Notes: generated from the sequence alone by a model not told the origin. A DNA stretch of 64,000 nucleotides from Trichormus sp. ATA11-4-KO1 (GCA_019358915.1 JAHHIM010000006.1:107340-171339); one strand, 5' to 3'; counted from the stretch's first letter, positions 1-14,637 are shown. Program-made: numbers and translations.

Positions 1-166
1 CGGCGGTGTCAGTTATCAGTTTTGATTCTAATTGAATCTTGGGTAAAAGATGTTGGCGCAGATAGCTATCGGCACTGGCAAATGAATTAATGGATGTTGT
101 ACAAGCCCAAAGAAAACTCAGGCATACTCCCATAATTAGCCAGGGTGTGAAACGTAATTTTTTCAT
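1..166 (-). CDS. Putative lipoprotein, N-terminal part only (runs off the window edge)
   Basis: Translated by hand from ATG at 166: MKKLRFTPWLIMGVCLSFLWACTTSINSF..., open to position 1. Basic N-terminus, hydrophobic stretch and LWAC lipobox. Starts 6 nt after the stop of the upstream ORF. Confidence 0.7.
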   Translation of the reverse strand, partial: MKKLRFTPWLIMGVCLSFLWACTTSINSFASADSYLRQHLLPKIQLESKLITDTA

Positions 167-172
167 GATTTT

Positions 173-823
173 TTAATTTTCTAAAAGTCCTTTTTCGTTG
201 TCAACAATCAGCATTTGTAATTGTTTAGAAATCAAATTAGGGGCATAGATTGAACGACGTTCTAGGGTTTCCAATGCAATTTGGTCGTGCAATTCCTGAA
301 GTTGGTCATGAGTTTGCTGGAGTCTTTTTCGACTTCTTTGTAACTTTCGTTGTGCCAATTCTTGATAGCGTGGTGTTTGCACTTTTTGAGTAACCTGTAA
401 TGCTTCCACTAGTTGCTCAACCAAATCTAAAACAGTGTGCAAAGTTTCCAGCAGGTCTGGAGTGAAGGTTGATTCTTGTTGAGCAATTTGTTTAGTAATC
501 TGCTGAATAGTTTGAGCTTGTTGCTGTACTGCTATCCATAGAGATAGAGAATTATCAGGAATTTGGTGATTTAAATGGTTGAGATGACTTAAGAAAACAT
601 CAGTTTGCAGTAAATTTGTAGAGGTAACTGAAGGGCTATTTTTTTGGCTTTTGAGTTGCACATACCAGGAAGCGATCGCTAAAACAATAATCACCGCACC
701 GCTAAATAAAACAGTCAAACGTATTCCTAGCCAAAAAACAAAGCCAAAATAACCAATCAATAAACCAGTTAGTAGAATCTGAGTGTGAGTTAGTCGAAAA
801 TAATAACGCTTTAGTTGAGTCAT
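173..823 (-). CDS. Two-TM membrane protein with a long coiled-coil C-terminus (XpaC-like architecture), function unknown
   Basis: ORF 173..877; ATG at 823 (MTQLKRY) is preferred because the degenerate copy at 2742-2850 aligns to this start. Two hydrophobic helices are followed by Q/E/L-rich heptads. Confidence 0.65.
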   Translation of the reverse strand: MTQLKRYYFRLTHTQILLTGLLIGYFGFVFWLGIRLTVLFSGAVIIVLAIASWYVQLKSQKNSPSVTSTNLLQTDVFLSHLNHLNHQIPDNSLSLWIAVQQQAQTIQQITKQIAQQESTFTPDLLETLHTVLDLVEQLVEALQVTQKVQTPRYQELAQRKLQRSRKRLQQTHDQLQELHDQIALETLERRSIYAPNLISKQLQMLIVDNEKGLLEN

Positions 824-880
824 AATTACTTTGTTGATAGTTTTGCGAGTGTCAAAATTGGTCACCGATAAAATCATTGG

Positions 881-983
881 TTATAGCGTTTCCTAATCTG
901 CTGAAGTACTGAGTACCTCGCTAAAAAAATTGGGCAATCTTTGCGTTCCTCTGCGCTACCTTAGCGTCCCTCTGCGTTGAAAA
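881..983 (+). repeat. About 103-bp dispersed repeat, copy 1 (copy 2 inverted at 36061-36164)
   Basis: TTATAGCGTTTCCTAATCTGCTGAAGTACTGA...CTTTGCG...GCGCTACCTTAGCGT...CTCTGCGTT aligns colinearly with the reverse complement of 36061-36164. Confidence 0.85.
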
Positions 984-993
984 TGTACCTCAC

Positions 994-1731
994 TTAAATG
1001 GGAATCGATATCATTTTTCTATGCAAATGCATCACAAAAAGCAATTGCTTTCTATATTGAGAATTAAGCTCCTCTTGTATTTTCTCAATTGCTTCATTTG
1101 CTTTTTGTACTGTTTCTATTTTTCCTTGCTGTTCAAACAATATAGAAGCTTTTTGTAAGTCGGCGATCGCACCTTCTTTATCTTCTAAAAGATAGCGAGT
1201 CAAACCACGAAAATAATGGGCATAAGCAATATTAGGAATAATTGACAAAGCTTTATCAAAATCTGCCTTCGCTGCTTGATATTCATTCAAACTAAAATAG
1301 CCCAATCCTCTACCAATGTATACATAAGGATTGTTAGATTCCATCTTTAAAACTTGGTTAAAATCTGTAATTGCACCCCGATAATCTTGTAAATCCATAC
1401 GATTTAAAGCTCGTTGATAGAGTATAGCGGGATCAGTTTTTAGTTGTTTATTGGTTGAAAAATCATTGCGGTTAACAGTACCGTTTGCGGATAGTTCTCT
1501 AACACTTGGTGATTGTACAACTTGAGCAACAGGTAGATTAGGAGTTTGTCCATAAACAGGGTTAAACATCACAAATTCTCCCATCGCACCCATCAACGGT
1601 AACAATAATTTAATTCCTAGCAAAAGTTTCTTTTTTTGCTGTTTGGGAAAATGAGTTAATTCTTGAAAATGACCTATTCCGCACAGGTGCAAGATATCAG
1701 TCAATAAACTTGCAGAAATTTTATTAGACAT
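994..1731 (-). CDS. Tetratricopeptide repeat protein
   Basis: Three TPR units (LYQRALNRMDLQDYRGAITDFNQVL, VYIGRGLGYFSLNEYQAAKADFDKAL, AHYFRGLTRYLLEDKEGAIADLQKA) preceded by a signal-like hydrophobic segment. Start is uncertain. Confidence 0.85.
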   Translation of the reverse strand: MSNKISASLLTDILHLCGIGHFQELTHFPKQQKKKLLLGIKLLLPLMGAMGEFVMFNPVYGQTPNLPVAQVVQSPSVRELSANGTVNRNDFSTNKQLKTDPAILYQRALNRMDLQDYRGAITDFNQVLKMESNNPYVYIGRGLGYFSLNEYQAAKADFDKALSIIPNIAYAHYFRGLTRYLLEDKEGAIADLQKASILFEQQGKIETVQKANEAIEKIQEELNSQYRKQLLFVMHLHRKMISIPI

Positions 1732-1850
1732 AAGTATAGACTCCTGTTAGTGTTAGGTGACAGCTAATAATTCAATACATTGTTATGTCTTAGTCGCAGT
1801 CCTGGCGGGTTGTGAACTGCTATAATGCCGGGAATATTGTTGATAAATTA

Positions 1851-2474
1851 TTATCGGTAATATCTTTGAAAAAATGCTCGCAACTGCTGCACAATCCATT
1901 GGATAAGAAGAAAAATAAAACCGAGAATGACTCTCATAGGGGCTAGTAGCATAGCCAATGCAAAAAAAGAACCAAGGATTGGTGGAAACCAGTTATATCG
2001 AACTGAAACAATCATTTTTTCTTGAGGATTTTCGATCAATTTGTTAAAGCGATAGTTTAAAGCTTCTAATTCAGGATCGTTGCGACGGGAGTAAGTCTTG
2101 ATTTTGTGATCGCCGAAGGCGGGGCTTTGCCCATCACCACTTTTAGAGCGTAATATGGCAACAAACTCTGTTTGACTTCCGCTTTCTGAGGAGGAATTAC
2201 GAATATCAATATCCATTTTTTGAACATCTTTAATTTCTTGTTTTGATGAGCGCAATAAAGCCTGATATTTAAGTGTGCAATCTATACGCATCAAATCTAT
2301 ATCACGACAAGTAATTTTGCTTGGTTCACCTATCCATAAATTGGAATACAAGTACAATCCATAACTCAATAAAAAACATCCAAGCCAGAAACAAGTAAGT
2401 GAAATACATATCCCCAATAGTATTTTTTCAGCTATCTTTTGACCTTGCGGTGATAATTTGGACATAGTAAGCAA
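1851..2474 (-). CDS. Hypothetical membrane protein (N- and C-terminal TM segments, soluble loop with a Cys pair)
   Basis: 207-aa ORF, hydrophobic at both ends, with ITCR...IDCTL in the loop. Likely ATG start at 2465. Confidence 0.65.
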   Translation of the reverse strand: MLTMSKLSPQGQKIAEKILLGICISLTCFWLGCFLLSYGLYLYSNLWIGEPSKITCRDIDLMRIDCTLKYQALLRSSKQEIKDVQKMDIDIRNSSSESGSQTEFVAILRSKSGDGQSPAFGDHKIKTYSRRNDPELEALNYRFNKLIENPQEKMIVSVRYNWFPPILGSFFALAMLLAPMRVILGFIFLLIQWIVQQLRAFFQRYYR

Positions 2475-2580
2475 AAAGATTATATTGACAGCAAACCTTC
2501 GACAAACGATAAAATCATTTGCACATCTGCAATTAAATTTTGATAATTCTGTTTTTGTGAAGGAATCAGGACAATTGCTT

Positions 2581-2648
2581 TTGATTCTGCTAAAGGTTTA
2601 TCGGTGGATAGGATGAAAACTAACGAAACATTTACATAAGTTTACAAA
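2581..2648 (-). promoter_or_regulatory. Bipartite motif copy A: HLR1-type direct repeat plus CCGATA box, upstream of 1851..2474
   Basis: Plus strand TTGATTCTGCTAAAGGTTTATCGG-N26-TTTACATAAGTTTACAAA. Near-identical boxes with the same spacing occur at 4461-4528. Confidence 0.7.
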
Positions 2649-2741
2649 ATTCTCTACTATGGCAAGATGTAAATAGCACAACTATCTAAAATTGATAAAA
2701 AGCCTGTAGCGTAAACTTTTTGGCTTCCAACTTGTGGTACT

Positions 2742-2824
2742 TCATAGCCAGAAAATAAAGCCAACATAACCAATTAACAAACCAGTTATTAATAACTGAG
2801 TGTAAGAAAACCGTGACTTTTCAT
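2742..2824 (-). pseudogene. Frameshifted, truncated paralog fragment of the 173..823 membrane protein
   Basis: Translates SRFSYTQLLITGLLIGYVGFIFWL*, versus RLTHTQILLTGLLIGYFGFVFWLG in the intact gene. The ATG at 2824 is out of frame by 1 nt. Upstream sequences are also similar. Confidence 0.8.
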
Positions 2825-2886
2825 AAATGTTAATAACTTTGCAAGTAAAATTTGGTGCGTTCAACCAATCGCCCAACACTCACTAG

Positions 2887-3483
2887 CTATTTTTGAAGCG
2901 CCTGCTGAAAAGTCTTGATGGCATCAACATGATTCACCATATTAATGCAATGTAACAACAAATCCAGATCGATCCCTTTGACTTCCTCACTACTGGAAAC
3001 CCTTTCATAATGAAGTCCGTCGCCCTCATAGCGCAGGTGATAAATTTCCAACACACCATCCTCCCAAAACCACACTTCAGGAATCAAGAGCCGCTTGTAT
3101 GCTTCCAGTTTGTTGATCCCACCACTGGTAAACACCACCTCTATCGCCAAATCGGGACGCACTCGACCAGGGGCAAGTTTATAAGATTCATCTGCTTCTC
3201 GCTTGACAGCGCCCGATTCACTTTCTAGGCTCATTGAGCCAGTTGGGGTAAAGTCAAACCCTGCCACAAGCAAGTACAGTTCCAGCAATGCGGCAATTCT
3301 CTTCTTAACTGTTTCGTGTGCTTCTCCTGGCATTCTTCGGATCTCCAATATTCCATCCAGGAAAGACAGGCGATATCCTGGGCGCTCTAGCAACTGCTCA
3401 ACTGCTTTGAATTCTCTCCAGGTCACTCCCTCAAACAACAGGGGTGATTCATGACGGGGTGTAGCGATCGCGGCTGGGGTCAT
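2887..3483 (-). CDS. Uma2 family (DUF820) endonuclease-like protein
   Basis: GVTWREF...LEIRRMPGEAHE...EADESY...PDLAIEV...KLEAYKRLLIPEVWFW, the typical cyanobacterial Uma2 pattern. Confidence 0.9.
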   Translation of the reverse strand: MTPAAIATPRHESPLLFEGVTWREFKAVEQLLERPGYRLSFLDGILEIRRMPGEAHETVKKRIAALLELYLLVAGFDFTPTGSMSLESESGAVKREADESYKLAPGRVRPDLAIEVVFTSGGINKLEAYKRLLIPEVWFWEDGVLEIYHLRYEGDGLHYERVSSSEEVKGIDLDLLLHCINMVNHVDAIKTFQQALQK

Positions 3484-3706
3484 TTGAGTCTCCAGTCTGT
3501 TTCCAGGTGAGCAAATAAAGATGGCGTAGTCGGGCAGTTTGCTTATTTTAACTTCTTTTTTGGTTCAGGGCGTTCACTTACTGCCAATCCCTAATCCTGT
3601 AGTAATTTAACCTTGTTCTGTTACTTTCCTAAGCATTCACTGACACTATCCCATTATCTACTTTTCCACTTTTACATAAATTGACACAACCGATTTTTCT
3701 TCAGAG

Positions 3707-4405
3707 TTAATCAATTAATCCTGCTTCTCTAGCACGAATTTTAGTGACAACTCTGATGTTTTTTCCTTGATTTTTTAATTCTTCGCAATCAATACCTAAA
3801 GCTGCTTGCAGCTGATCCCAGTAGTGGCGTACCATGCGTTCAGATACACAAATATGTGCGGCGATCGCTTTATCTTGTAATCCTTCATCAAAAGCTAGGC
3901 TGAGTAATTTTAATATCTCTGGTTTAAAGTTAAATTCTGAATAAATATCGGTAATCTCTTTGATGTGAGTAAATCCTTTTAACGCCCCATCTACTCTAGA
4001 TAGCATTTCTTTAGCAGGAAGACTTTTATCAGCGATTACAAAGCCTCCTTGATGGATGCTGATTGCAGATTTGATTTGCACAAGTCTTTGAATATAAGTA
4101 CTTTGTACCAGAATATTCAGGTTAGGATATTTATGCATTATTTGTTGTAAGAATTCAATACCTGTAAAAGTCCTTGCTTTCAATCCCAGCTTTTTTGACA
4201 GAAAAATATCCATAATTATCAAATTAGGCTGTGAATTCGAGATTTGATTGAAAGCTTCATCAGCCGTTTGAGCGCTGATAATTTTCATATTTGTATATTG
4301 ACTTTTTAACAATTTAATTGTTCCAGTCAAATAGACATCATAACTATCAACTATAACAACTTGTGGTGATGCCTTTTCTAATAACAATTGACTCATAGTG
4401 ACCAT
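3707..4405 (-). CDS. Response regulator, REC plus LuxR-type HTH
   Basis: VVIVDS, LIIMDI (phospho-acceptor Asp), LVQST and ADKS in the REC domain; C-terminal GLQDKAIAAHICVSERMVRHYW HTH. Confidence 0.88.
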   Translation of the reverse strand: MVTMSQLLLEKASPQVVIVDSYDVYLTGTIKLLKSQYTNMKIISAQTADEAFNQISNSQPNLIIMDIFLSKKLGLKARTFTGIEFLQQIMHKYPNLNILVQSTYIQRLVQIKSAISIHQGGFVIADKSLPAKEMLSRVDGALKGFTHIKEITDIYSEFNFKPEILKLLSLAFDEGLQDKAIAAHICVSERMVRHYWDQLQAALGIDCEELKNQGKNIRVVTKIRAREAGLID

Positions 4406-4460
4406 CTTTTAAGTTAAAAGTAAAAAGGCAAAATCCAGATGAAAGTTTAAAGTTACTTTC

Positions 4461-4528
4461 TTGACTCTGCTAAAGGACTATCGGAGTTTAAAGGCAAAAT
4501 TGTGCAAATTTTTACATAAGTTTACAAA
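4461..4528 (-). promoter_or_regulatory. Bipartite motif copy B upstream of the response regulator
   Basis: TTGACTCTGCTAAAGGACTATCGG-N26-TTTACATAAGTTTACAAA. TTTACATA-AG-TTTACAAA matches the HLR1 consensus (G/T)TTACA(T/A)(T/A)-N2-(G/T)TTACA(T/A)(T/A). Confidence 0.7.
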
Positions 4529-4533
4529 TAAAT

Positions 4534-7233
4534 TTATTGAGGATGAGGACAAGAATCATCTTTTACGAGATCGAACCTCAACTGTTCATTGACAGTGACG
4601 ATTCCCCTCGTGGTAATTTCTCGGCGATCGCCTCTAGCATCAAAACTAATCGATACGCCTTGGCTTGTCGCACTAGATGCTGCTACCCCCTTGATAATTC
4701 CTGTATTCGCCAATTTCTGCCGGATATCTTCTCGAGTTATGGGTGAGTCTGATAGTTTAATGGCTTGCAGTACCGCCTGAACAGCCTCATAAGCCAGGGC
4801 TGTCCGGCGATTTAAATCACCGCCCCAGTATTCGTTGATTTGTTGAGCAAAAGCTTGTGCGCCACATTGTTTTGGATGCCAATCAACCGCCAGGAATAAG
4901 CTATTTACTGTAGCATCTTTAGTCTGATCAATAACTTCTTGGAGGTAGAGGGGATTTGCTGCTAAAACTGGTTTTTTTCTCTCGTTTAATTTGATAATCT
5001 CAATCGCTTTTGCAAATGCTACATTATCATCAGTACCCCCATCTGCTAATACTGCCAGAGCATCTGCATCTTGAACTTGTGGCGGAAGTTGACCAATATC
5101 TAATTTAGGATCTGCAAGATCAAATTCAGCAACTATACTGCCTTTAAATGCTCTAAGTACCAAAATAAATTGCTCTAACAAGTCCTTACTAAATAATTCT
5201 TGAGAGTTGTAAAAAGCAACCACTTTTGGTTGAGGCTTTTTGAGAACCTCAACTAAATACTGCACTAGACTCTGAGCTTCTACTCGACTAGATGAAACAG
5301 TCCTGAAGAATACTTTATATGGGTCACCGCCACAAGCTGGACTGGATGGGAGATTAACAAGGCTGCTGGTAGGAGAAATCACTACAAGCGGGTGTGGTTT
5401 ATGAGAATAGACCTTCAAAGCTGCACAGGTATTGGGAGAGGTGTAGTGTCCTACCACAGCGAGAACGTTGGCATCTTCTTTGAGCATTTTTGCCACTCCT
5501 CTCGCTTGTTCGGTGTTGTTATTATCATTAGCAATCACAACTTGCAAATTAATACCTTGCTGAACCGCTACATCTTGTGCTTGAGCAACTCCAAATACGA
5601 TATCTAACCCAGCATTGAAATTTAGTGGTGCAGCAACAGCAATAGTGTAAATTGGCAAATCTGGGTTTTGGCTATGACGATGCATCACAAAGGCATTATT
5701 GCGAGAAATTAAAACTATGGGGTCTTGTAGTGCTGTAAAAGCTGCTTGGCTGATAGATGGAACCGCTTTATTTTGTTGTGCTAGATGACGCAACTGTTCA
5801 AAAATCTTTGCCGCATCTGCATATTGATTTTGAGAAAATGCTGTAATACCTTGTTGTTTTAATGAAAGATATGGCTCACTTAGTTGTACTTTGCTGTTAG
5901 CAATTGGTTTTTCACCAATACTGATATAGTCGTCTAATGGGGGAAGTGGACTGAGGCAAATTGAGGGAAAAATCTGACATCGGTGCATCGCCACTGGAGT
6001 AGCTACAGCGATGATTCCAGCTAAAACAACCCCCGTCATCAGATAAGGACGAGACAGGTAAGATTGACAACGAGAAAGTAGTGATGGCTCAGGCCACACT
6101 AATTCCGGCTGATTCGGATTCAGGCAAACGGCGGGTAGCCAGGAAGCGGCCGGGAACTCTATTCTTTGTATCGGTTCCAGGCGATCGCGTGCCTCCCGTA
6201 CTGCCCGAAAAAGTGGTATACCTTGAGAAAATTGCTGTAAAAAGTCGAGTAAGAATTGACAAGCAATTTCATCGGGTACAGGTTCTCGCATCACAATCAC
6301 CGCAGGTACTTTCAACCTTGCCAAAAAATCTGCAATCCCTAACCCATCACAAGAATTAAAGATTGCCAACTTTAACCCTCTGGTGACTGCTCTCCTTAAC
6401 CCTTGACGTAAATCATTTAATTTGAAAAAATCGCCATCACCAATTTGTATACCACTGTCTTCAATATTGGTTCTATCACTACAACTATGGCCAGAAAAGA
6501 GCAAGATATCCCAACTGTGATTAAATAACAAATCAGACAATTCTTGATCCGTCGGCTGTGATTTCAGAGTAATTTTTGCCCCCCGCTTTTGCAGGAGGTT
6601 TAATGCTGCTTGATCTTTTTCTAGTTGTAAACCACCATGAGAACTACCGAAAATGGCTAAAACTTTGACTGGTGCTTTCAGGGCAGGGACTTGTTTCGCA
6701 AATCCAGAGAATAATGTAAACTCAGCTTTAGGCAGTTCGGTAAATAAATCCCAAAGATGCCAAGGTAACCTGCGCAGCAGTTCATTGGGATTATGATTGT
6801 GTGTAGGGCATCTGATGATAATGGGGACAGATTGATCGTTGTTGACCCTGATATCTGCGATATCTGCCCGAATGCGATCGCTCAAACGCTCAAATGCTTC
6901 ATTATTAAACCAGCTTTTACAGTATTTTTCTAGGTTTCTCGTGCTTTCTGCCCAGGCTACGTTAGTTACCTGGTCTGGAACAGGTTCGAGTTTCCGGTTA
7001 CCTGGTTTATGTGACCATTTACGAACACGATCTAGTGATATACCTTGCCATTCTTTATACAACTGCGGCATTTCTGGCGCAGCAGGAAGACAAATAAAAT
7101 CCTCATATTCTTTGATAGTTTTAGCATCTTGCAATACCTTCAGCGTCACAGGAAACCCAGCATCGAAGCTACCGCCACTAATCTCCAGTACCACGGCGAC
7201 ATTTTGAGGATGTCTCAAGATAAAGTCAAGCAT
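4534..7233 (-). CDS. CHAT-domain (caspase/HetF-like) protease fused via a TM helix to a periplasmic LivJ-type (PBP type 1) ligand-binding domain
   Basis: LRRLPWHLWDLF, ILLFSGHS (catalytic His), AIFNSCDGLG (catalytic Cys), IVMREPVPD and AVREAR mark the CHAT domain. TM segment LMTGVVLAGIIAVATPVAM. IAVAAPL, NDNN, VLAVVGHYTS, VISPTSS, FFRTVSS and ALAYEAV mark the PBP domain. Confidence 0.9.
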   Translation of the reverse strand: MLDFILRHPQNVAVVLEISGGSFDAGFPVTLKVLQDAKTIKEYEDFICLPAAPEMPQLYKEWQGISLDRVRKWSHKPGNRKLEPVPDQVTNVAWAESTRNLEKYCKSWFNNEAFERLSDRIRADIADIRVNNDQSVPIIIRCPTHNHNPNELLRRLPWHLWDLFTELPKAEFTLFSGFAKQVPALKAPVKVLAIFGSSHGGLQLEKDQAALNLLQKRGAKITLKSQPTDQELSDLLFNHSWDILLFSGHSCSDRTNIEDSGIQIGDGDFFKLNDLRQGLRRAVTRGLKLAIFNSCDGLGIADFLARLKVPAVIVMREPVPDEIACQFLLDFLQQFSQGIPLFRAVREARDRLEPIQRIEFPAASWLPAVCLNPNQPELVWPEPSLLSRCQSYLSRPYLMTGVVLAGIIAVATPVAMHRCQIFPSICLSPLPPLDDYISIGEKPIANSKVQLSEPYLSLKQQGITAFSQNQYADAAKIFEQLRHLAQQNKAVPSISQAAFTALQDPIVLISRNNAFVMHRHSQNPDLPIYTIAVAAPLNFNAGLDIVFGVAQAQDVAVQQGINLQVVIANDNNNTEQARGVAKMLKEDANVLAVVGHYTSPNTCAALKVYSHKPHPLVVISPTSSLVNLPSSPACGGDPYKVFFRTVSSSRVEAQSLVQYLVEVLKKPQPKVVAFYNSQELFSKDLLEQFILVLRAFKGSIVAEFDLADPKLDIGQLPPQVQDADALAVLADGGTDDNVAFAKAIEIIKLNERKKPVLAANPLYLQEVIDQTKDATVNSLFLAVDWHPKQCGAQAFAQQINEYWGGDLNRRTALAYEAVQAVLQAIKLSDSPITREDIRQKLANTGIIKGVAASSATSQGVSISFDARGDRREITTRGIVTVNEQLRFDLVKDDSCPHPQ

Positions 7234-7311
7234 AACAGAGTCAGACTGTGTGGGAGGTAAAGAATTTATGTCTTAGATAAGCACGATTTAGCAAAGCTAG
7301 GCAATAGGCAG

Positions 7312-8433
7312 CTAAACCACAAAACTCTCAGTAAAACTGGCATTTTGGAGAACAACACTGACACTGAAGCGATCGCCTGGGTCAGCTGTAAACTTAAATT
7401 GTATATAGTCGTCTTGTGGACGTATTTCTACTTCAAAAAAGGAATTTCCGGTTTCGTCCAACCCGATTAATTTCAATCCTGATGGTAGCGAAGACGGTTT
7501 TTCTAGTTGATACAATCGCAAGAGAATTAACACTCTATTATCTAACTTGGGCAAAATACCCACCATCAGTAAGACAGGATATCCCAGCAGGTAAATGCCT
7601 AAATCTTTCCCACTGATTACCGGAGAGGCGGGATGTTGGGGATTAAGTTCCCACAGAACTTCAGCCGCTTGCCAACGAATTTCGTCATCTTGAGTAGTTT
7701 GGATGAGATTTTCCAAAGCTGCTGGGAAATCCAGGTTAACTGAAATGGGTTGTACCAAATTACGCGTATGTCGGCGATAGAGTTGTTCAACTCGTTGGCG
7801 AATGGGGTCATTACTGCGTTGTAGTTGCATCTGTGACCCACAAAATTTTAAAGTTGCTTTTTGGATATTATTCAGTAAATCTTTTGGGGGTTGCCAATCG
7901 GATTCAAATATGCGTTTGCGCCATTCTTGCAGTTGGACAATTGGTTGTGGCGATCGCTCTGAGGTCAAATGCTCTAGAAATACATCAAGTGGTTGAAAAT
8001 AACTGCGTGGTAATTCCGACACTGAGACGGATTCTACAAATCCTACAATTTGTCCCTCTTGGTAAGGTTCATCGAGTTGAATGATGACGTAGCCAATGCG
8101 TTCTGACCAAACTTCTGCGGGAATTAGACATTTGCGATCGCCTTGACGTAGGGAACGACACTCTAAAAAGCCTGACAATGCTGGAATATATAAATCAGCA
8201 ACGTTTTCTAACAGACGTTCTAGAGGATTCCAACTATGACTAACTTCTAAATCGGTATCAATTCCCAACAGTTGCAAACAACGCTGAGTCACCAACACAG
8301 CTAAGGTATTCCGATAAACTTGCTCTGATCGTTTTGGGGTTGGCTGTTGTTGAGCAAACTGATAGGCTTGTTGGCGATCGCTAGCTGTAATGGGAATAGC
8401 AATCGGGGTGAATTTTGTAGCGGTATCAATCAT
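7312..8433 (-). CDS. DUF1822 family protein (candidate anti-sigma factor / protease substrate)
   Basis: AYQFAQQQ...QVYRNTLAV...LGIDTDLEVSHSWNP...ADLYIP...LECR...IPAEVWSERIGYV...LPSGLKL...DDYIQFKF...GDRFSV signature, with a HEAT-like internal segment (DDEIRWQAAEVL). Alternative TTG start at 8445. Confidence 0.88.
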   Translation of the reverse strand: MIDTATKFTPIAIPITASDRQQAYQFAQQQPTPKRSEQVYRNTLAVLVTQRCLQLLGIDTDLEVSHSWNPLERLLENVADLYIPALSGFLECRSLRQGDRKCLIPAEVWSERIGYVIIQLDEPYQEGQIVGFVESVSVSELPRSYFQPLDVFLEHLTSERSPQPIVQLQEWRKRIFESDWQPPKDLLNNIQKATLKFCGSQMQLQRSNDPIRQRVEQLYRRHTRNLVQPISVNLDFPAALENLIQTTQDDEIRWQAAEVLWELNPQHPASPVISGKDLGIYLLGYPVLLMVGILPKLDNRVLILLRLYQLEKPSSLPSGLKLIGLDETGNSFFEVEIRPQDDYIQFKFTADPGDRFSVSVVLQNASFTESFVV

Positions 8434-8473
8434 GATTCGTATCAAAGAAAATATCTGGAAACTTTAGAGGACA

Positions 8474-9187
8474 TTATTCAGACAACAACTGTTTAAAAAT
8501 CCGGAAACAGCGTGTGCGACAAAATCTTTTCAGTGATGATGCTGCAACTCCATAATTTTGAGCGATCGTATCCCAAGAAAATTTTTCTGTTTCTGAATCG
8601 CGCAACACTATTAATATCTGCGTCAACACAATCTGACAGTTGACATGAGGATGTTTCTGCATTTGACAATTTTTGAGTAAATGCGGATTATTTTGCACTA
8701 ACTCTAGCCATTCTTTGATCGTTTGCTTCAAAGGAGGAAGAGGAGGCGGATAAATCCATTCGTTATCTTCTCTATCTGGAGGAAGACGTAAACGATTTTT
8801 CTCTTCCTTGGCTCTTTCTCGAATGACATCTAGAATCATCCATCTCAGCTTTTGGTTAAACCAGGTAACAAAGCTGGCCTTTTCTGGGTTATACCTCTGA
8901 CAAAAATCTTCTAAAAACCATACCCAAGTTCGTGATAGTGCTTCACTATAGACATCTGGTGATATCCTATTGCCACACCAAATCAATCGAGAAGAAGTCA
9001 TCATTGTGATGATAAAAGTCTTAACTTGATTTGGGTCATCAGGTTGACACGCTTGCTCAAATAGCCATTGACGAGCAGGAATATCGTTGATAATTTCCTG
9101 GAGCTTTTGACGGTGCTGTAATAGCCTGCTCTTTTCAATTGGGTCATTAAAAGCAGCTTGCAGTAAATCCCTCAAGTCATTACACAT
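8474..9187 (-). CDS. Sigma-70 family / HetZ-like alternative sigma factor
   Basis: Region-2-like YSEALSRTWVWF...YNPEKASFVTWFNQKLRWMILD and C-terminal HTH FSWDTIAQNYGVAASSLKRFC. Sits directly upstream of the DUF1822 and CHAT genes. Confidence 0.78.
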   Translation of the reverse strand: MCNDLRDLLQAAFNDPIEKSRLLQHRQKLQEIINDIPARQWLFEQACQPDDPNQVKTFIITMMTSSRLIWCGNRISPDVYSEALSRTWVWFLEDFCQRYNPEKASFVTWFNQKLRWMILDVIRERAKEEKNRLRLPPDREDNEWIYPPPLPPLKQTIKEWLELVQNNPHLLKNCQMQKHPHVNCQIVLTQILIVLRDSETEKFSWDTIAQNYGVAASSLKRFCRTRCFRIFKQLLSE

Positions 9188-9250
9188 AAGGGTTATCCAG
9201 ACCCAATCAATTCAGGTTTGAATTTCATGACAGTACCTAACCTCCCCTTA

Positions 9251-9315
9251 CTTGCCTAGTAGGTTATCGGAAGTAGAAACTGGAATATTCCCAATTGTTT
9301 ACAAAATGTTATTTA
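9251..9315 (-). promoter_or_regulatory. Bipartite motif copy C (degenerate) upstream of the sigma factor gene
   Basis: CTTGCCTAGTAGGTTATCGG-N27-TTTACAAAATGTTATTTA. The spacer contains GGGAATATT on the minus strand (9284-9292). Confidence 0.55.
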
Positions 9316-9361
9316 TTAAGGCGAGATAGGAGAAATGAGTGCCTTTCTGAGTGCTTCCTTC

Positions 9362-9405
9362 CTGAGTGCGCTTGCCCTGAGCGAAGTCGCAGGGGAGTGC
9401 TGAGT
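9362..9405 (-). repeat. 44-bp small dispersed repeat embedded in CTCAGCA STRR, copy 1 of 4
   Basis: Reverse complement of ACTCAGCACTCCCCTTCGACTTCGCTCAGGGCAAGCGCACTCAG with one mismatch. Confidence 0.9.
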
Positions 9406-9454
9406 GAGGAGTAGGAATTTAACCTCCTACTTCCCCCTATTCCCCACTCCCTAA

Positions 9455-10666
9455 CTAACGCAATGATTCAATTGTCGGTGAACCATCAGATTTAATCCAA
9501 GCAATTTGGGCAATACCGCGATCGCTTGCGTATTGCCTAATAGCTTGTGTATCTCTGCCGCCCAAGTCCATTTCTACACGTACCAAGTTAGTAGAATCAC
9601 GCAGTTTTTGTGCGTAGGCAAAGGCGGCAGCCTCAGCAGTTGGTGTTTCTGCTACTACTAACCAGTTACTCGCTGGGGTTGCCTGGGGTAATTGCTGAGT
9701 AGATAAAAGAACTTGGTATAAATCTTCGATGTTGAGGACAAAACCAATTCCGGGGATGTTTTCTCCTTGGGGATGATACAGTCCCAAAAGCTTGTCGTAG
9801 CGCCCACCGCGCCCTAAAACCCTTGCTTGCGACCCAGTATCACTGACAACTTCAAAGACTATACCTGTGTAGTAATCTATAGTTTGGATCAGGCTAAGGT
9901 CAAGAATTAAAGGAAATTCCCCTTCCGATTTTAATAACTCTACCAGAGATTTAAGGTTATTTACTATCTCTTGTTGTTCTGCGTCTAAACCTAAGCTACT
10001 AACTTTTTGCAAGACATCAGCACTGTCACCGCGCAGATCCATCATGATTCTGGCGCGATCGCGCAATTCATCGCTCAGGGGTAAAGTATCTATGGCAATG
10101 CGGTCGAGATGGGCGATCGCACTGCGAACTTTAGCTTGGAGATGAGCGGGAAAGGCATCAAGGAGCGATCGCGTGATTCCCGCTTCGCCTAGAATCAAAT
10201 GCCAATTCTGCAAACCCAGCGCTGACAAACAATTTGCCGCTAATAGCAGCACTTCTGCATTGGACAGCAATCCGCCGACACCCAACAACTCAACCCCAGC
10301 TTGATAAAACTCTTGCTGGCGATTGTGCCTGTTTTCCCAGGTACGGCGGAAGACGTTGGCATTGTAGTACAAGCGTTGCGGATAAGTAACACCTGCCATC
10401 CGCGTGACAACTGCACGAGCAATGGAGGCTGTCAATTCTGGACGCAATCCTAACTCTTCATCTTCAGTACTTTGCAGTTGAATCACCATTTGGCGTTGAA
10501 TTGCTTCCCCTGCCATCAATGTATCCATTCGTTCCAACGTCGAAGTGATAATCCTGTGATATCCCCAACGATGAAACACCTGCTGTAACCTATCTTCAAT
10601 CCAGCGTTTTTGAGCCACATCTAAAGGTAATAAATCCCTGGCTCCCGCTGCTGGTTGATACACCAT
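9455..10666 (-). CDS. hisZ: ATP phosphoribosyltransferase regulatory subunit
   Basis: HisRS-like motifs GARDLLP, LRPELTASIAR, EFYQAGVEL, DYYTGIVF and GGRYD. Confidence 0.93.
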   Translation of the reverse strand: MVYQPAAGARDLLPLDVAQKRWIEDRLQQVFHRWGYHRIITSTLERMDTLMAGEAIQRQMVIQLQSTEDEELGLRPELTASIARAVVTRMAGVTYPQRLYYNANVFRRTWENRHNRQQEFYQAGVELLGVGGLLSNAEVLLLAANCLSALGLQNWHLILGEAGITRSLLDAFPAHLQAKVRSAIAHLDRIAIDTLPLSDELRDRARIMMDLRGDSADVLQKVSSLGLDAEQQEIVNNLKSLVELLKSEGEFPLILDLSLIQTIDYYTGIVFEVVSDTGSQARVLGRGGRYDKLLGLYHPQGENIPGIGFVLNIEDLYQVLLSTQQLPQATPASNWLVVAETPTAEAAAFAYAQKLRDSTNLVRVEMDLGGRDTQAIRQYASDRGIAQIAWIKSDGSPTIESLR

Positions 10667-11616
10667 TATTTTTTCTTCCCACCAAACAAACCACCAAACA
10701 AACCGCCACCCCCAGACTTATCTGGTTGCTGACTTCCCACCGTCCGAGGTGAAGTCACTTTCGAGCCACTAGATTGTTGCCCCAAAGCCTTTTCTATTTT
10801 AGGTTTCCATGTCAACGCTATTTCATCTTTAGGGTCTAATTTCAGAGCATTATCAAAGTGAATTTTGGCCATTTTTAGCTGATTTTGCTTTAAATACACC
10901 AAAGCAATCAAACTATGACAATGACTATTCTTCGGTTCTAGCTTCAGAGCATCTTGTAACTCCACCTTGGCTTGGACAAATTGGTTTTTGTCAATCAAAG
11001 TTTGAGCGCGACGGATATATTGCTCTACAGCCGAATCTTCTTTTGGTGGGGCTGGTGGGGGTGGAGGTGCTGTATTTGGCTTGGGCACACTTGAGTTACT
11101 GGCAGATTTTGCAGGTGAAACTGGCGCTGTGGCAGCTTTGCCAGCACTCCGCATCAAGTAAACTAGATTTAATTCGCTGATTTGGGCTATGACTTGAATT
11201 GATTGCGGCAACGAGTCATATTGAGTTGCGGCCATTTTCGCGATCGCACTTCTATAGCAATGATCAATATTAGGCGCAGCAGCTAACTGTTTAGCTAAGT
11301 CGCTACTCAATTCCACCGAAGCAGATTCTTGAACCAAACGCTTGCCCATTTGAGACAAAACTATGATGTATTCTGCGCGACTGCTTTCTGCTGACAGTTT
11401 TTCGTAAGCTGGGTTAACCAACTTTGATAATAATTCATTAGCTAGCTGTTTTTCCGCCCCCGAGCTAATAGTGCTGCTATCAGGGTGCAGGCGGCGAGCA
11501 ATTTGCAGATAACGTTTGCGTATATCTTTTACATCCGCATCAACAGAAACACACAAAATTGCGTGATGGTCTATGAAATCATATTTAAACAATCCAATAT
11601 CTATTTTTAAAGACAT
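10666..11616 (-). CDS. DnaJ-domain protein with C-terminal TPRs
   Basis: IRKRYLQIARRLHPD (HPD motif), a Pro-rich linker and two TPRs. The stop codon overlaps the hisZ start. Confidence 0.88.
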   Translation of the reverse strand: MSLKIDIGLFKYDFIDHHAILCVSVDADVKDIRKRYLQIARRLHPDSSTISSGAEKQLANELLSKLVNPAYEKLSAESSRAEYIIVLSQMGKRLVQESASVELSSDLAKQLAAAPNIDHCYRSAIAKMAATQYDSLPQSIQVIAQISELNLVYLMRSAGKAATAPVSPAKSASNSSVPKPNTAPPPPPAPPKEDSAVEQYIRRAQTLIDKNQFVQAKVELQDALKLEPKNSHCHSLIALVYLKQNQLKMAKIHFDNALKLDPKDEIALTWKPKIEKALGQQSSGSKVTSPRTVGSQQPDKSGGGGLFGGLFGGKKK

Positions 11617-11739
11617 AGAGCGGTTTTGCACCAAAGGAGCCGTTAGATTTTTTCTAGTTTACTTCGCGTAAACGGTGATTTGTAAGGTGGGTAGGCATTG
11701 GGCATTGGGAAAATTATTTTCCCTATCCCCTTGTCCCCC

Positions 11740-12552
11740 TCACTTCCAGCTTGATAAGGGTGGAACTTTTACCAATTCATGACTTAGGTAGTCGTGGATT
11801 TTACCATTGGTTGCGAGAATTCTCCCTGATGCAATTTTGCAGGGAGTACCATCATAGGCAGTGACTTTACCGCCAGCCTCTTGTGGTAAAATTACACCAG
11901 CGACAACATCCCAAGGTGAAATTCCCCTTTCCCAGTAACCATCGACACGCCCACAGGCAACATAGGCTAAATCTAAGGCTGCGGAACCGCTACGCCTAAC
12001 GCCTTGGGTGAGATGGGTGAGGTGACAAAATTCCGCGTAGTTGTTATCTGATGTTTCCCGGCGATCATAAGCAAATCCCGTTACTAATAGACTTTTACTC
12101 AGTTCAGATGTTTCGGAAACCTTAATTGAGCGACGATTGCGCGTTGCACCCAATCCAGTTGCCGCCCGGAATAACTCATCGTGAAGAGGGTCATAAATTA
12201 CACCAACTTGCGGCATACCATTAATTAATAACCCAATGGAAACAGCAAAAGCGGGGTATTGGTGAGCATAGTTGGTTGTACCATCTAAAGGGTCAATTGC
12301 CCAGAGATACTCATTATCTTGATTTCCCAGTTTCCCCGATTCTTCAGCCAAAATAGAGTGCTGAGGAAAGTGGCGACGCAAAACTTCTAAAATCACCACT
12401 TCCGAGGCTTTATCGGCAGCAGTGACTAAATCACCAGGACGACCTTTTTCAGTAATGGCATCTTCTAATTTACCCAAATAATCCTGCAAAACCTTACCCG
12501 CAGACAGCGCCGCTTCCGTAGCAATATCGAGAAAAATTTGTAAATTAGTCAT
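11740..12552 (-). CDS. suhB: Inositol monophosphatase family protein
   Basis: DLVTAADKASE, WAIDPLDGTTNYAH, RRSGSAALDL and WDVVAG motifs. Confidence 0.9.
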   Translation of the reverse strand: MTNLQIFLDIATEAALSAGKVLQDYLGKLEDAITEKGRPGDLVTAADKASEVVILEVLRRHFPQHSILAEESGKLGNQDNEYLWAIDPLDGTTNYAHQYPAFAVSIGLLINGMPQVGVIYDPLHDELFRAATGLGATRNRRSIKVSETSELSKSLLVTGFAYDRRETSDNNYAEFCHLTHLTQGVRRSGSAALDLAYVACGRVDGYWERGISPWDVVAGVILPQEAGGKVTAYDGTPCKIASGRILATNGKIHDYLSHELVKVPPLSSWK

Positions 12553-12621
12553 TTGTCATTAGTCATTGGTCATTGGGCATTCTTCTTGTCTCCTACTCAG
12601 CACTCAGGAAGGAAGCACTTT

Positions 12622-13143
12622 CTATAGATTCCGCCGCCGAAACTCAGCAGGAGGGACACGCATGGGTTTTTCTGGGTGCCAAATTCCTTTTCCCATGAGT
12701 CTAGCCCATTGTTGAGCGCGTTCCAAGCGCTGGTCATATTTGTGGTTAGGCGATCGCCCCACAAACAACGCATACCCTTGTTTGACTACTTGTTCATTCA
12801 ATAACTGCTGATCTCTCCATACATAAGCCAAAGTCCGCCCAATTTTGTCTTTGGCTTCAAGATCAAATTCCAGGGTTACGGGTTTTTCTAGATCACCAAT
12901 TAACTTCTCTAAAAGTTGCCTGGCTTCATCTCCCCAAGGCTGTTGTTGCAAATCTGGTGCATCAATTCCCACTAATCGGACTCGGGAAATCAAATTTGGT
13001 TGTTCAGCCATGCCTAAAACTTCCAAACTTTGCCCACTGACTACCCGCGCTACTTTCACCTGCACCTGATTGCTTGCAGATTGATTGTTACCTTGACAAC
13101 TCACCAGCAGCAGCAAGCAACCTAAAATGACTATTTTTCGCAC
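12622..13143 (-). CDS. Thermonuclease (SNase-like) family lipoprotein
   Basis: LLLLVSC lipobox; VRLVGIDAP, DKIGRTLAYVW and LNEQVVKQGYA motifs. GTG start near 13143 is inferred because the ORF extension to 13227 runs through a CTCTGCGT repeat. Confidence 0.85.
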   Translation of the reverse strand: MRKIVILGCLLLLVSCQGNNQSASNQVQVKVARVVSGQSLEVLGMAEQPNLISRVRLVGIDAPDLQQQPWGDEARQLLEKLIGDLEKPVTLEFDLEAKDKIGRTLAYVWRDQQLLNEQVVKQGYALFVGRSPNHKYDQRLERAQQWARLMGKGIWHPEKPMRVPPAEFRRRNL

Positions 13144-13216
13144 CCAGAGATCCACAAGCGCCACCAGAGTTATAATTTTTACCTTTGCGTCTCTGCGTCT
13201 TTGCGCGAACAAAATC

Positions 13217-13585
13217 TTAATCCTCATCTAAAGGTAAACCCGCCTTAACTCTACCCTTAGCAAAATAGCGCCCAAACTGGAGTTCATAAACCTCATCCTC
13301 ATCTTGAGTTTCCACCTCCAAGTCAGAACGGGCATAACTCACACATAACAAAGCATAACCTTGCCGCCGCAACTCCGGTGACAATCCGACTGCCTCTGGT
13401 TGGTAAATTTCTCCAGACAATACTCTAACAGCACAAGTTGTGCAAGCTCCATTACGGCAAGAAAACGGTAGTTCCACCCCTTGCTGTTCGGCAGTGTGCA
13501 GGATGTAGCGGTCTTCTGGAACTTGGAGGGTAAATTCTTTACCAGTGGCGCGATCGCGGATTTTAATTGTGTATGTACGGGACAT
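13217..13585 (-). CDS. fed2: Plant-type 2Fe-2S ferredoxin with C-terminal extension (Fed2/FdC2 type)
   Basis: LPFSCRNGACTTC...LLC cluster motif and EDEVYELQFGRYF extension. Confidence 0.85.
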   Translation of the reverse strand: MSRTYTIKIRDRATGKEFTLQVPEDRYILHTAEQQGVELPFSCRNGACTTCAVRVLSGEIYQPEAVGLSPELRRQGYALLCVSYARSDLEVETQDEDEVYELQFGRYFAKGRVKAGLPLDED

Positions 13586-13648
13586 TTTGATTTGAGGTTG
13601 GGGAATTTAACTTTTCAGCTTTAATCTAAGTTATGTCTGCTTCTATCT

Positions 13649-13677
13649 TTGCATTTTTCAGGATTTCGTAGTACAAT
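13649..13677 (+). promoter_or_regulatory. Sigma70-type promoter of tRNA-Ser
   Basis: TTGCAT-N17-TACAAT ending 17 nt before the tRNA 5' end. Confidence 0.6.
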
Positions 13678-13694
13678 CGTAAATCGTGGCACCT

Positions 13695-13781
13695 GGAGAG
13701 GTGGCCGAGTGGTTGAAGGCGCAGACCTGGAAAGTCTGTTATGCGGAAACGTATACGAGGGTTCGAATCCCTCCCTCTCCG
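13695..13781 (+). tRNA. trnS: tRNA-Ser(GGA)
   Basis: Acceptor stem GGAGAGG/CCTCTCC plus discriminator G; D-arm GCCGAGTGGTTGAAGGC; anticodon arm CAGAC-CTGGAAA-GTCTG; long variable arm; GGTTCGAATCC T-loop. CCA is not encoded. Confidence 0.97.
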
Positions 13782-13855
13782 TTTTTAAATTTCTTACTAG
13801 ATCAGCATTCTAGCGAGTTTTCCACCAATCATTTTCATAACTTGGTTGGATGGGC

Positions 13856-13880
13856 AAAAGGAGGGGTATGATGCCCTCCT
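13856..13880 (-). terminator. Rho-independent terminator after 13903..14280
   Basis: Minus strand AGGAGGG-CATCATAC-CCCTCCT followed by TTT. Confidence 0.55.
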
Positions 13881-13902
13881 ACACTTCAACAAATTTAAAT
13901 CC

Positions 13903-14280
13903 TTACATTCCCAGTAAGCTAATTACCTCCTCTAAGTGATTCTTAGCTTTATAGATAGCAATCAGTTTTTCCTGGTCATATCTGGCTGGTATTGTCATTC
14001 TCCTGCCCTCAAATGAGATTCTTAGCAGTGCTGCTTGCTCTGTTGTGGGGCTACCCATCTCATCTAACGTGCTACCTATCTCTTGCAAGCTAGCAAATGA
14101 TGGTGATTTCAACCCTTCACCTTTTTCTAGTTGATGTATTGCTAATACTGGAAATGCCATCAGGGATGTGATGTAGCTGGTTTTGTATCCACCATTCCCA
14201 GTGGGTCGCAAACCGTATCGATTACAGAGAATTTTTAACTGTGGAACGCTCAACAGTTCAAGTTCAGTACGAGTGAACAT
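13903..14280 (-). CDS. Hypothetical protein with an N-terminal SAP/HeH-like motif
   Basis: ATG at 14280. LELLSVPQLKILCNRYGLRPTG..YKTSYITSL resembles the SAP/Rho-N helix-extension-helix pattern. Confidence 0.65.
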   Translation of the reverse strand: MFTRTELELLSVPQLKILCNRYGLRPTGNGGYKTSYITSLMAFPVLAIHQLEKGEGLKSPSFASLQEIGSTLDEMGSPTTEQAALLRISFEGRRMTIPARYDQEKLIAIYKAKNHLEEVISLLGM

Positions 14281-14409
14281 AGAATAGTAATGCCTCTTTT
14301 TAAAAGTGGTATCGGTAGGTAACAAGTTTCTCAGGCTGATTACCTACCGATTAAATAGTCTAATTAGTTGTGTACATCTGATTCAAGCATTAGTTATATT
14401 TCTAAACAG

Positions 14410-14601
14410 ATGCCCAATCCTAAAGGAACCCCAGAAAATTTAGAACCATCAAAACCAAAGGGTGATGAACCTATGACGGCAACTGTTAGCTTTAGATGTA
14501 CTGAATCAATGAAGGAAGCTGTTAAATCTCAAGCAGACCCTCCTGAATTTTGCCGTCAAGCTATCCAAGAGAAACTAGACAAGAACAAGTCTTCCTCATG
14601 A
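14410..14601 (+). CDS. Small ribbon-helix-helix (CopG/Arc-like) DNA-binding protein
   Basis: MPNPKGTPENL...TVSFRCTESMKEAVK...EFCRQAIQEKL: an alternating beta strand followed by two helices. Confidence 0.65.
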   Translation: MPNPKGTPENLEPSKPKGDEPMTATVSFRCTESMKEAVKSQADPPEFCRQAIQEKLDKNKSSS

Positions 14602-14637
14602 AGATGGGCGTAATTAGCCTGCTAATCACATTTGTGT

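Follow-up and report, generated by a model that had tools for sequence, protein, structure and literature searches.

A three-gene cassette in a 64,000-nt stretch of Trichormus sp. ATA11-4-KO1 (GCA_019358915.1 JAHHIM010000006.1:107340-171339; the whole stretch is called the window here) appears to encode a transmembrane (TM) receptor protease that controls a dedicated sigma factor by cutting the partner of that factor, a reading that we place somewhat above even probability. The cassette consists of genes for a sigma-like factor, a DUF1822 protein and an 899-aa fusion protein, and is followed by the gene of a REC-LuxR regulator. As an earlier sequence-only reading had stated, these four genes are co-oriented: all four open reading frames (ORFs) are intact on the minus strand (8474-9187, 7312-8433, 4534-7233, and 3707-4405) and are separated, in that order, by 40, 78, and 128 bases. 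The three-gene core is a family already described by computation. The parts of Kaur et al. 2021 (eLife, PMC8195603) that concern it present neighbourhoods of a sigma factor, DUF1822, and an EACC2-caspase protein, in which EACC2 and the caspase domain are constant and the C-terminus varies, as a TM-linked or an intracellular sensor, including TM-linked CHASE2 and "several small-molecule-binding domains"; there, DUF1822 is called a TPR protein, autoproteolysis is proposed, and the family is read as a counter-invader system. To that description we add the LivJ-type sensor, a predicted cut site, a modelled fold, and a candidate promoter. The core genes and their domains are as follows (pLDDT, predicted local distance difference test).

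8474-9187, minus strand: sigma-like factor, 237 aa
7312-8433, minus strand: DUF1822 protein, 373 aa from ATG, with an in-frame TTG at 8445
7954-8406, minus strand: DUF1822 N-domain, residues ~10-160, modelled PD-(D/E)xK nuclease fold; N42, D80, E91-C92-R93
7813-7818, minus strand: predicted cut R206|S207, in the disordered linker (residues 193-207, pLDDT < 50)
7645-7806, minus strand: helical middle insert of DUF1822, residues 210-263, in the window clade and not in short members
7315-7623, minus strand: DUF1822 C-domain, residues 271-373, Ig-like beta-sandwich (VIA-align Z up to 7.9, many Ig-like domains)
4534-7233, minus strand: EACC2-CHAT-TM-helical hairpin-LivJ-type receptor protease, 899 aa
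6694-7209, minus strand: EACC2 alpha+beta domain, residues ~9-180
6109-6678, minus strand: CHAT caspase-like domain, H249 at 6487-6489 and C295 at 6349-6351
5986-6042, minus strand: predicted single TM helix, residues 398-416
4564-5661, minus strand: predicted periplasmic type-I (LivJ/LivK-like) binding domain (Foldseek and Pfam)

The receptor protease, its putative substrate and the sigma-like factor

At E <= 1e-3, 623 proteins match the receptor, and CHAT together with PBP6 is present in most of the best 120; 98 of the 119 listed non-self homologues were aligned with the receptor, partial, kinase-fused, and ~1230-aa forms being dropped. Pfam places CHAT at residues 208-358 (E 1.3e-14) and Peripla_BP_6 at residues 556-853 (E 1.7e-26). 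Both catalytic motifs that the sequence-only reading had called intact are so, FSGHS starting at residue 246 and FNSCDG at residue 292, and the His/Cys dyad that they carry (H249 and C295) is invariant in 99/99 aligned fusions; the motif pair is also kept in 91 of 95 other EACC2-CHAT ORFs. The CHAT domain aligned with that of the HetF of the host itself (profile alignment 98%, E 1.5e-13) with the dyad motifs in register, and it had no match in the PDB by sequence. The receptor is not a HetF orthologue, scoring 11.8 bits on the HetF model NF045509 against a cut-off of 1200, whereas the true hetF of this genome (C8:370-2901) scored 1469.9 bits. The earlier parsing into CHAT, one TM helix, and a LivJ-type domain was right but missed two parts, namely the N-terminal domain and a helical hairpin (residues 455-522) that lies between the TM helix and the binding domain in the AlphaFold2 (AF2) model (mean pLDDT 89.9; TM region < 50). 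Because no published EACC2 profile was available, the N-terminal domain was named EACC2 from its position and the description in section 9 of PMC8195603. It has an alpha+beta fold in the AF2 model, and a profile of residues 9-185 matched the N-termini of CHASE2-, STAND-, and periplasmic binding protein (PBP)-fused proteins alike. Within it, R80 sits in a disordered loop (residues 77-89, pLDDT < 50) and is kept in 95/99 fusions.

Hydrophobic segment 398-416 has a mean Kyte-Doolittle (KD) value of 2.14, the next best in the window receptor being 1.53; across the fusions, this segment reaches KD >= 1.6 in 93/99, with nothing >= 1.9 elsewhere. None of the 99 aligned fusions has an N-terminal signal, K and R are commoner before the helix than after it in 80/99, and the number of Cys residues after the helix is even in 97/99, as expected for periplasmic disulfides. 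From these features we strongly infer that the inner membrane is crossed once, EACC2-CHAT being cytoplasmic and the LivJ-type domain periplasmic, which would put protease and sensor on opposite sides of the membrane, as the sequence-only reading had supposed. The best structural matches of the sensor are LivJ and LivK (Foldseek 4gnr, E 4e-17, target-normalised TM-score 0.81), and S599, S623, R644, and T645 are conserved. The domain thus resembles LivJ/LivK-type binding proteins and Venus-flytrap receptors in its fold and its retained pocket-position serines, but unlike LivJ and LivK it is fused through one TM helix to a conserved protease and has no adjoining permease gene, on which grounds a role as part of an ABC transporter was rejected. 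The name under which databases hold such fusions, "ABC transporter substrate-binding protein", hides their protease part. A similar ectodomain was found on a kinase (P0064), and a few members of the family are broken: the receptor is truncated at 585 aa in L005:7962-9719, the EACC2 start is split in L021:6765-9771, and DUF1822 is split in L034:6827-7972.

In the model of the DUF1822 protein (PF08852, E 2.9e-77; AF2 mean pLDDT 84.8), an alpha/beta N-domain is joined by a disordered linker to a helical insert, which a beta-sandwich follows. The N- and C-domains were compared by VIA-align against 48,161 chains, and the N-domain matched I-Ssp6803I (Z 9.4, root-mean-square deviation 3.4, 115 aligned), the archaeal Holliday-junction resolving enzyme 1ob8 (Z 8.1), D212 (Z 7.3), and Hjc (Z 7.2); five nucleases beside I-Ssp6803I cover the same N-domain in the top 50 rows. 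A phage "restriction endonuclease" was also matched (E 4.6e-4), while Foldseek on the DUF1822 model returned nothing at E <= 0.001 and an Atlas search with the N-domain returned no match outside PF08852. The modelled architecture, a nuclease fold followed by an Ig domain, corrects the published "TPR" label. N42, D80, E91, and C92 are invariant in 49/49 DUF1822 members, and position 93 is R in 40/49 and I, L, C, or another residue in 9/49, never K; the complete D...(D/E)xK triad was not encountered, and the mapping of D80, E91, and R93 onto it rests on secondary structure, not on superposition. D80 and E91 were jointly lost in 9/104 close homologues; a subclade with Cys/Trp at these positions comprises P0191, P0193, P0195-P0197, P0200, P0202, P0203, and P0206. 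Since Lys never occurs at position 93 and some homologues have lost D80 and E91, the N-domain may be nuclease-like in fold while its activity is doubtful.

The linker is where we place the cut. In an alignment of the window protein with its 43 best DUF1822 matches (n = 44), identity is 0.28 in the linker versus 0.72 in the domains, and R206 is nevertheless kept in 38/44; R[SG] occurs in 37/44, compared with a shuffle mean of 8.8 and a maximum of 18 in 2000, a test that overstates significance because the clade sequences are kin. Most other members carry a hydrophobic residue followed by R or K, 17-19 residues after W180 (44/49 by a loose pattern). The Arg of an R[SG] site is likewise invariant in 30/30 PatU3-like proteins, which were identified by their place after hetZ and a Y-R-S motif. 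At L024:9260-10663, a sigma factor is fused directly to a DUF1822 linker and Ig domain and is followed by an EACC2-CHAT protein with a second CHAT. The Ig-like C-domain is the constant part in this fusion and in type-B DUF1822, which has another N-domain and pairs with, and follows, a different and longer sigma-like protein (500-570 aa). We propose that this C-domain is the protease-docking module and that DUF1822 is both the substrate of the protease and an anti-sigma factor. The third DUF1822 of the host genome (G000 C13:67095-69531) is of type B and lies behind a 392-aa sigma-like gene; it has A-R-S in its linker and no EACC2-CHAT gene nearby, and may be cut in trans.

That the first gene encodes a sigma-like factor, as had been read earlier, is weakly supported by the single protein (TIGR02937, E 2.8e-4, 20.5 bits versus a cut-off of 42.9) and well supported by its family profile, which aligned with a sigma factor of the extracytoplasmic function (ECF) type from the same genome over 144 columns spanning regions 2 and 4 (hhalign 95.4%, E 2e-8). 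Region 2 lies at about residues 78-125 and the region-4 helix-turn-helix (HTH) at about residues 203-230. The top four PDB rows were ECF sigma factors, but at E 0.012-0.017, and both regions aligned to SigE; Atlas neighbours carry the name sigma-70. The match to the CASP-sigma model NF041236 was poor (E 0.042, 13.8 bits versus a cut-off of 100), and there was a weak FliA/WhiG match at residues 91-125 (E 0.046). Region 2.4 (KLRWMILDVIR) is one that we take to resemble that of sigma28, whose promoter is TAAA-N15-GCCGATAA. The protein is thus a putative divergent ECF/group-3-like factor, predicted to bind RNA polymerase.

A sigma-DUF1822-CHAT core with variable sensors, for which the sequence-only reading had suggested looking, was found across related sequences. 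DUF1822 is encoded at 60 of 80 related loci and both partners at 54; direct triads number 29. The sensors of these loci range over CHASE2, nSTAND1-WD40, NACHT, NB-ARC, iSTAND, ricin, and PBP. Of the 19 PBP-fused loci, 13 show the order sigma, DUF1822, receptor; a script called 11 of these, and the other two, each with a split gene, were assigned by eye. In three more, one partner or both lie close by or at the edge of a contig. The C-termini of 69 non-PBP EACC2-CHAT proteins were nSTAND1 (28), CHASE2 (10), NACHT (8), iSTAND (2), and one each of WD40, NB-ARC, ricin, and a second CHAT; 17 had no match. In 41 related genomes, DUF1822 occurs in 40 (up to 18 copies), the sigma factor in 35, and EACC2-CHAT in 38 (up to 21), with at least 32 triads in 20 genomes. 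Among the best 150 of 237 and the best 150 of 190 matches, a listed DUF1822 gene lies no more than 200 bp from at least 46 of 91 full-length sigma matches (13 of 104 were set aside as partial or split), and a listed EACC2-CHAT gene no more than 600 bp from at least 81 of 150 listed DUF1822 genes. The window clade itself is patchy: 3/41 genomes have it, and a search of one genome from the same genus did not turn it up. The genome of the window also contains a paralogous system (G000 C73; L001:4907-19211 and L002:3232-6381), with a sigma gene, a TPR-CHAT gene, and then ~10 kb of other genes, including kdp-like genes and an ORF that is presumably Rep-like, before DUF1822, EACC2-CHAT-CHASE2, and DUF928; in G001, a genome from the same genus, sigma and DUF1822 are similarly set apart, by 13 kb.

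The candidate promoter element and the REC-LuxR regulator

A bipartite element recurs in three intergenic regions of the window, one of them upstream of the regulator gene.

9265-9315, minus strand: candidate promoter of the sigma operon, degenerate repeat plus TGTAAA-N27-CCGATA
4479-4528, minus strand: second copy of the element, before the regulator gene; TGTAAA twice with a period of 10, N26, CCGATA
2599-2648, minus strand: third copy of the element, before a 207-aa gene; not used to define the motif
3707-4405, minus strand: REC + LuxR-like regulator, 232 aa (Pfam Response_reg, E 1.5e-7)

The strict form TGTAAA-N26/27-CCGATA has six matches in the 5.97-Mb genome, and three of them are those of the window, at 9303, 4516, and 2636. 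The motif was read from the first two window sites; the third, as well as the sites in locus L099 and in Calothrix NIES-2100, came later. Upstream of the sigma gene, the block is conserved in 7/7 aligned clade sequences. L099 has three copies of the element, two of which were found after the motif had been defined, and the element stands before the same regulator family in L099 and L248; the Calothrix NIES-2100 site, before that family, lies two genes downstream of a CHAT-PBP gene. In a STAND-fused clade, GTAAA-N17-GATA precedes 16/53 sigma genes (the 16 are kin) versus 3/403 control ORFs, and the element appears again before the protease gene in six loci, five of them with CCGATA and an upstream repeat. 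A scan of the collection with the promoter pattern gave 103 matches, of which 80 were examined; eight of these were from oxygenic cyanobacteria, three of the eight lying at this kind of system, one of which is the L011 site again. A scan for the sigma-70 consensus found fewer sites than shuffles did (8 versus 14.3). Many of the 103 pattern matches (L170-L249) come from Gastranaerophilales/Melainabacteria genomes and are mostly intergenic. Before CHASE2-type sigma genes (L150-L169), a different bipartite element, GGGTA-N25-ATACT, was present in 7/21 regions; its halves are, we presume, reminiscent of SigF and SigJ boxes.

The regulator that carries one of these elements had been called REC-LuxR and counted as part of the system. 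Its receiver was recovered by Pfam, but Pfam GerE gave no match in it, and the LuxR-type HTH is one that we presume from its motif; the D-D acidic pair of the family is replaced by D-S. A place in the core was rejected, as none of the 80 loci related to the cassette yielded the regulator; its family occurs in 27 of the 41 genomes searched. At 13 larger regulator loci, it lies beside 716- and 464-aa genes in seven, follows the cassette in one (L099), and precedes TPR-CHAT/DUF1822/EACC2-CHAT in one (L102). In the single locus scanned (L104), the 716- and 464-aa genes encode a C39 exporter and HlyD, and a CHASE2 kinase gene lies downstream. Loci L104-L110 show the usual arrangement, in which a C39-peptidase ABC exporter, HlyD, and a 236-aa unknown protein precede the regulator and a CHASE2 kinase-like gene (Pfam on L104), and this home suggests peptide signalling. 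Because the regulator shares the element and is missing from the 80 loci, it is probably a recruited output of the system, with an altered acidic pocket, and not a core component.

Proposed mechanism and competing explanations

In the mechanism that we propose, the receptor crosses the inner membrane a single time, with its protease part in the cytoplasm and its sensor in the periplasm, as strongly inferred above. An amino-acid-like small molecule would close the binding domain and alter, up or down, the activity of the protease, probably through a dimer. DUF1822 would dock on EACC2-CHAT through its Ig-like C-domain and be cut after Arg206, upon which the nuclease-fold N-domain, presumed to hold the sigma factor, would be released and degraded and the sigma factor freed. 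The latter would then read the CCGATA box and transcribe its own operon, the REC-LuxR regulator gene, and the 207-aa gene, giving positive feedback and a second regulatory tier. The receptor-protease, partner, and sigma model of the sequence-only reading fits the evidence, although four corrections to it were needed. Its claim that the ligand activates the protease has no support, since the isolated CHAT domain of HetF is active without the TM and periplasmic part (PMC9457339).

The cassette resembles several known systems. Like those in the relevant sections of PMC8195603, it has an N-terminal alpha+beta domain and a caspase domain, a variable sensor, and neighbouring ECF sigma and DUF1822 genes, and it is cyanobacterial. 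Unlike them, its sensor is LivJ-type ("PBP" is not in the Figure 3 source data, which cover TRADD-N loci; the figure itself may list one), and DUF1822 is given here a nuclease fold, an Ig domain, and a conserved Arg site; sections 8 and 9 of that paper give no promoter or cut site. HetF, which cuts PatU3 at R117|S118, shares with the receptor a cytoplasmic CHAT domain, a TM segment, and a periplasmic sensor, as well as an Arg-Ser cut site in a linker and a substrate encoded with a regulator; as far as the pertinent parts of PMC9457339 go, it differs in having periplasmic TPRs instead of a binding domain and in not lying beside its substrate. The analogy drawn earlier with HetF, PatU3, and HetZ holds for the protease, the CHAT domains being homologous, but PatU3 and HetZ are analogues and not detectable homologues of DUF1822 and the window sigma factor: profile-profile comparison reached only 0.1% for DUF1822 (versus 30 PatU3-like proteins) and only 9%, in the HTH alone, for the sigma factor (versus 30 HetZ-like proteins). 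The type III-E proteins Csx29, Csx30, and CASP-sigma are likewise a CHAT protease, a cleavable sigma-binding protein, and a sigma factor with motifs in its own locus (positive autoregulation), but that system is soluble and is triggered by target RNA on Cas7-11, as described in the sections of PMC10028731 on its activation. By inspection, the ORFs of window positions 1-16000 include no CRISPR genes and no ORF of Cas7-11 size. In the DdvA/DdvS pair of Myxococcus xanthus, a membrane protein with a CHAT domain also controls an ECF sigma factor; per the passages of PMC11506125 on DdvA, its CHAT domain lies in the periplasm and lacks a complete active site, and the anti-sigma function resides in the same chain. 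In the window system, by comparison, the CHAT domain is predicted to be cytoplasmic, the dyad is full, and the anti-sigma candidate is separate.

Several observations, beside the missing homology to PatU3 and the ligand-free activity of HetF, weigh against the reading of a receptor protease that frees a sigma factor. DUF1822 and EACC2-CHAT are present in 40/41 and 38/41 related genomes, yet the literature search found no experiment on any family member, and a broader one found only work on HetF, CRISPR-CHAT, and DdvA and surveys of orthocaspases; the sequence-only reading knew of no functional characterisation of the PBP-fused version, but the family had been described by computation (PMC8195603). 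Neither partner lies within 8 kb in 3/19 PBP-fused loci. The DUF1822 sequence has no match in the PDB, and the 49/49 invariance of D80 and E91 exceeds what a pure binding role needs. The window clade has lost the usual [FY]R site of the family (F197-C198), for which reason R206 is read as a shifted site, and no clear matching change was seen in the protease pocket. Distances in 33 triads correlate between the sigma factor and the N-domain (partial r 0.69, versus -0.02 for the C-domain) and between EACC2 and the C-domain (0.40, versus -0.16 for the N-domain), but this pattern mirrors gene order, linkage alone could give part of it, and the kin sequences are not independent. As for the promoter, the spacer of the window element is about one helical turn longer than usual, 5/8 oxygenic-cyanobacterial pattern matches have no gene of the system within 4 kb, and the element was not found upstream of 21 further sigma genes, mostly CHASE2-type (one match was a repeat artefact); a family-wide promoter is not supported by these 21 regions.

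These points give room to other explanations. DUF1822 could be a latent nuclease effector, in which the cut frees a PD-(D/E)xK domain that damages DNA or RNA, leading to suicide or dormancy of cells in the filament, while the sigma factor keeps the defence operon expressed. The best structural matches of the N-domain are nucleases, and D80 and E91 are invariant (49/49) on the strands where we presume the motif to lie; many sister systems use STAND NTPase sensors, and the family was read as a counter-invader in the part of PMC8195603 that interprets it. The catalytic Lys is, however, never present, the acid of the first helix is Asn, D80 and E91 are jointly lost in 9/104 close homologues and, by eye, in type-B members, and the sigma fusion of L024 has no N-domain at all, so that we consider this explanation unlikely. 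A reversed or different logic, in which the protease is on by default and shut off by the ligand, or in which DUF1822 or its N-fragment is a co-activator that cleavage untethers or inactivates, would accord with the finding that HetF keeps PatU3 below detection in the wild type and that its bare CHAT domain is active (PMC9457339, sections on PatU3), with the type III-E work, whose authors leave open how cleavage frees CASP-sigma (PMC10028731), and with the promoter here, which has no conserved box at the usual -35 distance and thereby suggests a helper. This logic seems quite unlikely to us, as the known protease/anti-sigma pairs, as given in those sections of PMC10028731, release the sigma factor on cleavage, and the cis fusion of L024 is most simply a tethered sigma factor freed by a cut. 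We hold it to be decidedly improbable that the protease cuts itself, for example at R80, and that the fragment signals through an uncut DUF1822 scaffold. Self-cleavage was proposed by Kaur et al. (PMC8195603, section 9) and for DdvA (PMC11506125, abstract), and R80 is kept (95/99) in a disordered loop, but it does not account for an Arg that is conserved although the DUF1822 linker around it changes fast and that the sigma fusion retains as well, and within the receptor-protease model R80 could be a pseudo-substrate or a priming site.

A further alternative concerns the element, which might combine an RpaB (HLR1) site with the box of a host group-3 sigma factor; the sigma-like protein would then have its role elsewhere or be a simple HTH regulator, and the host, not the cassette, would co-regulate the gene of the REC-LuxR protein. 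At two of the three window sites, namely in front of the regulator gene and of the 207-aa gene, the repeats match HLR1, a direct repeat of (G/T)TTACA(T/A)(T/A)-N2, perfectly in reverse (2/15 such sites in the genome), which also weighs against the receptor-protease reading. With CCGATA as the -10 box, their centre would fall near -47, a position that depends on the unmapped start site and would lie within the activating range of RpaB on HLR1, -66 to -45, in the pertinent section of PMC6525291. Similar intergenic elements also precede unrelated genes in L177, L181, and L221, the single-protein sigma score is below its cut-off, and position 85, Gln in the family, is Ser in the window clade. Set against these points, CGATA follows only those two of the 15 HLR1-like sites, CGTAAA, which is not HLR1, stands at normal spacing before both the sigma and the protease genes of the STAND clade, and ECF regions 2 and 4 align with the family profile; in addition, RpaB and the cassette sigma factor could act together. 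We regard this alternative as very unlikely.

Beyond the receptor-protease model for this cassette, a wider claim, which we put forward tentatively as possible but doubtful, is that of a large cyanobacterial family of one-step receptor proteases (~20 per genome at most) in which a Venus-flytrap ectodomain gates a caspase-like cut of a nuclease-fold anti-sigma factor at a linker Arg, and the sigma factor reads a sigma28-like CCGATA box with upstream GTAAA repeats one helical turn beyond -35; in its boldest form, the released N-domain is itself an active nuclease, and a single cleavage leads to a transcriptional response as well as to cell death in the filament. The DUF1822 fold opens the question of whether the cut releases a sigma factor, a nuclease, or both. 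If true, the model would add a compact, small-molecule-gated, caspase-like signalling route parallel to two-component systems. The window version lends itself well to a first test: its ligand class is constrained, and its sequence provides exact handles (C295, R206|S207, D80/E91, R80, and the three promoter copies).

Neighbouring genes and further observations

Four further genes lie downstream of the regulator.

2887-3483, minus strand: Uma2-family gene (PF05685, E 1e-12); no counterpart at that place in L099
1851-2474, minus strand: 207-aa gene, probable membrane protein of unknown family; homologues after the cassette in L099 (43%) and L006 (45%)
994-1731, minus strand: TPR protein (TPR_1, E 1.8e-15)
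173-877, minus strand: protein with hydrophobic N-terminus and coiled coil, first gene of an SBP-vWA operon

The Uma2-family gene is probably a passenger, and the 207-aa gene is a probable regulon member. The TPR gene is a loose associate of the cassette; an element-bearing TPR-like gene follows the receptor in L099. Gene 173-877 is present in 3/41 genomes, always downstream of a window-type receptor, and its product shares ~35% identity with the C-terminal regions of 11 EACC2-CHAT proteins, most of them from Pseudanabaena. Because it travels with the clade (3/3) and the same domain is fused to EACC2-CHAT at 11 loci, this gene and the SBP-vWA gene may be part of a wider system.

Among named records, the locus is closest to those of Nodularia, Anabaena, and Nostoc, and the host genome carries its own hetF and hetZ elsewhere. 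In several relatives (L003, L004, L006, and L007), as in the window (9455-10666), the cassette comes directly after hisZ, and in L003 and L004 short tandem repeats lie between the promoter and the sigma gene. Two Band_7/SPFH genes are found upstream of the sigma gene in the PBP-fused locus L019 (2605-6047), with ORFs of similar size in L017 and L022. Elsewhere in the host genome, a HetF-related CHAT-FHA protein adjoins a PP2C phosphatase (L113:4295-8321; G000 C5).

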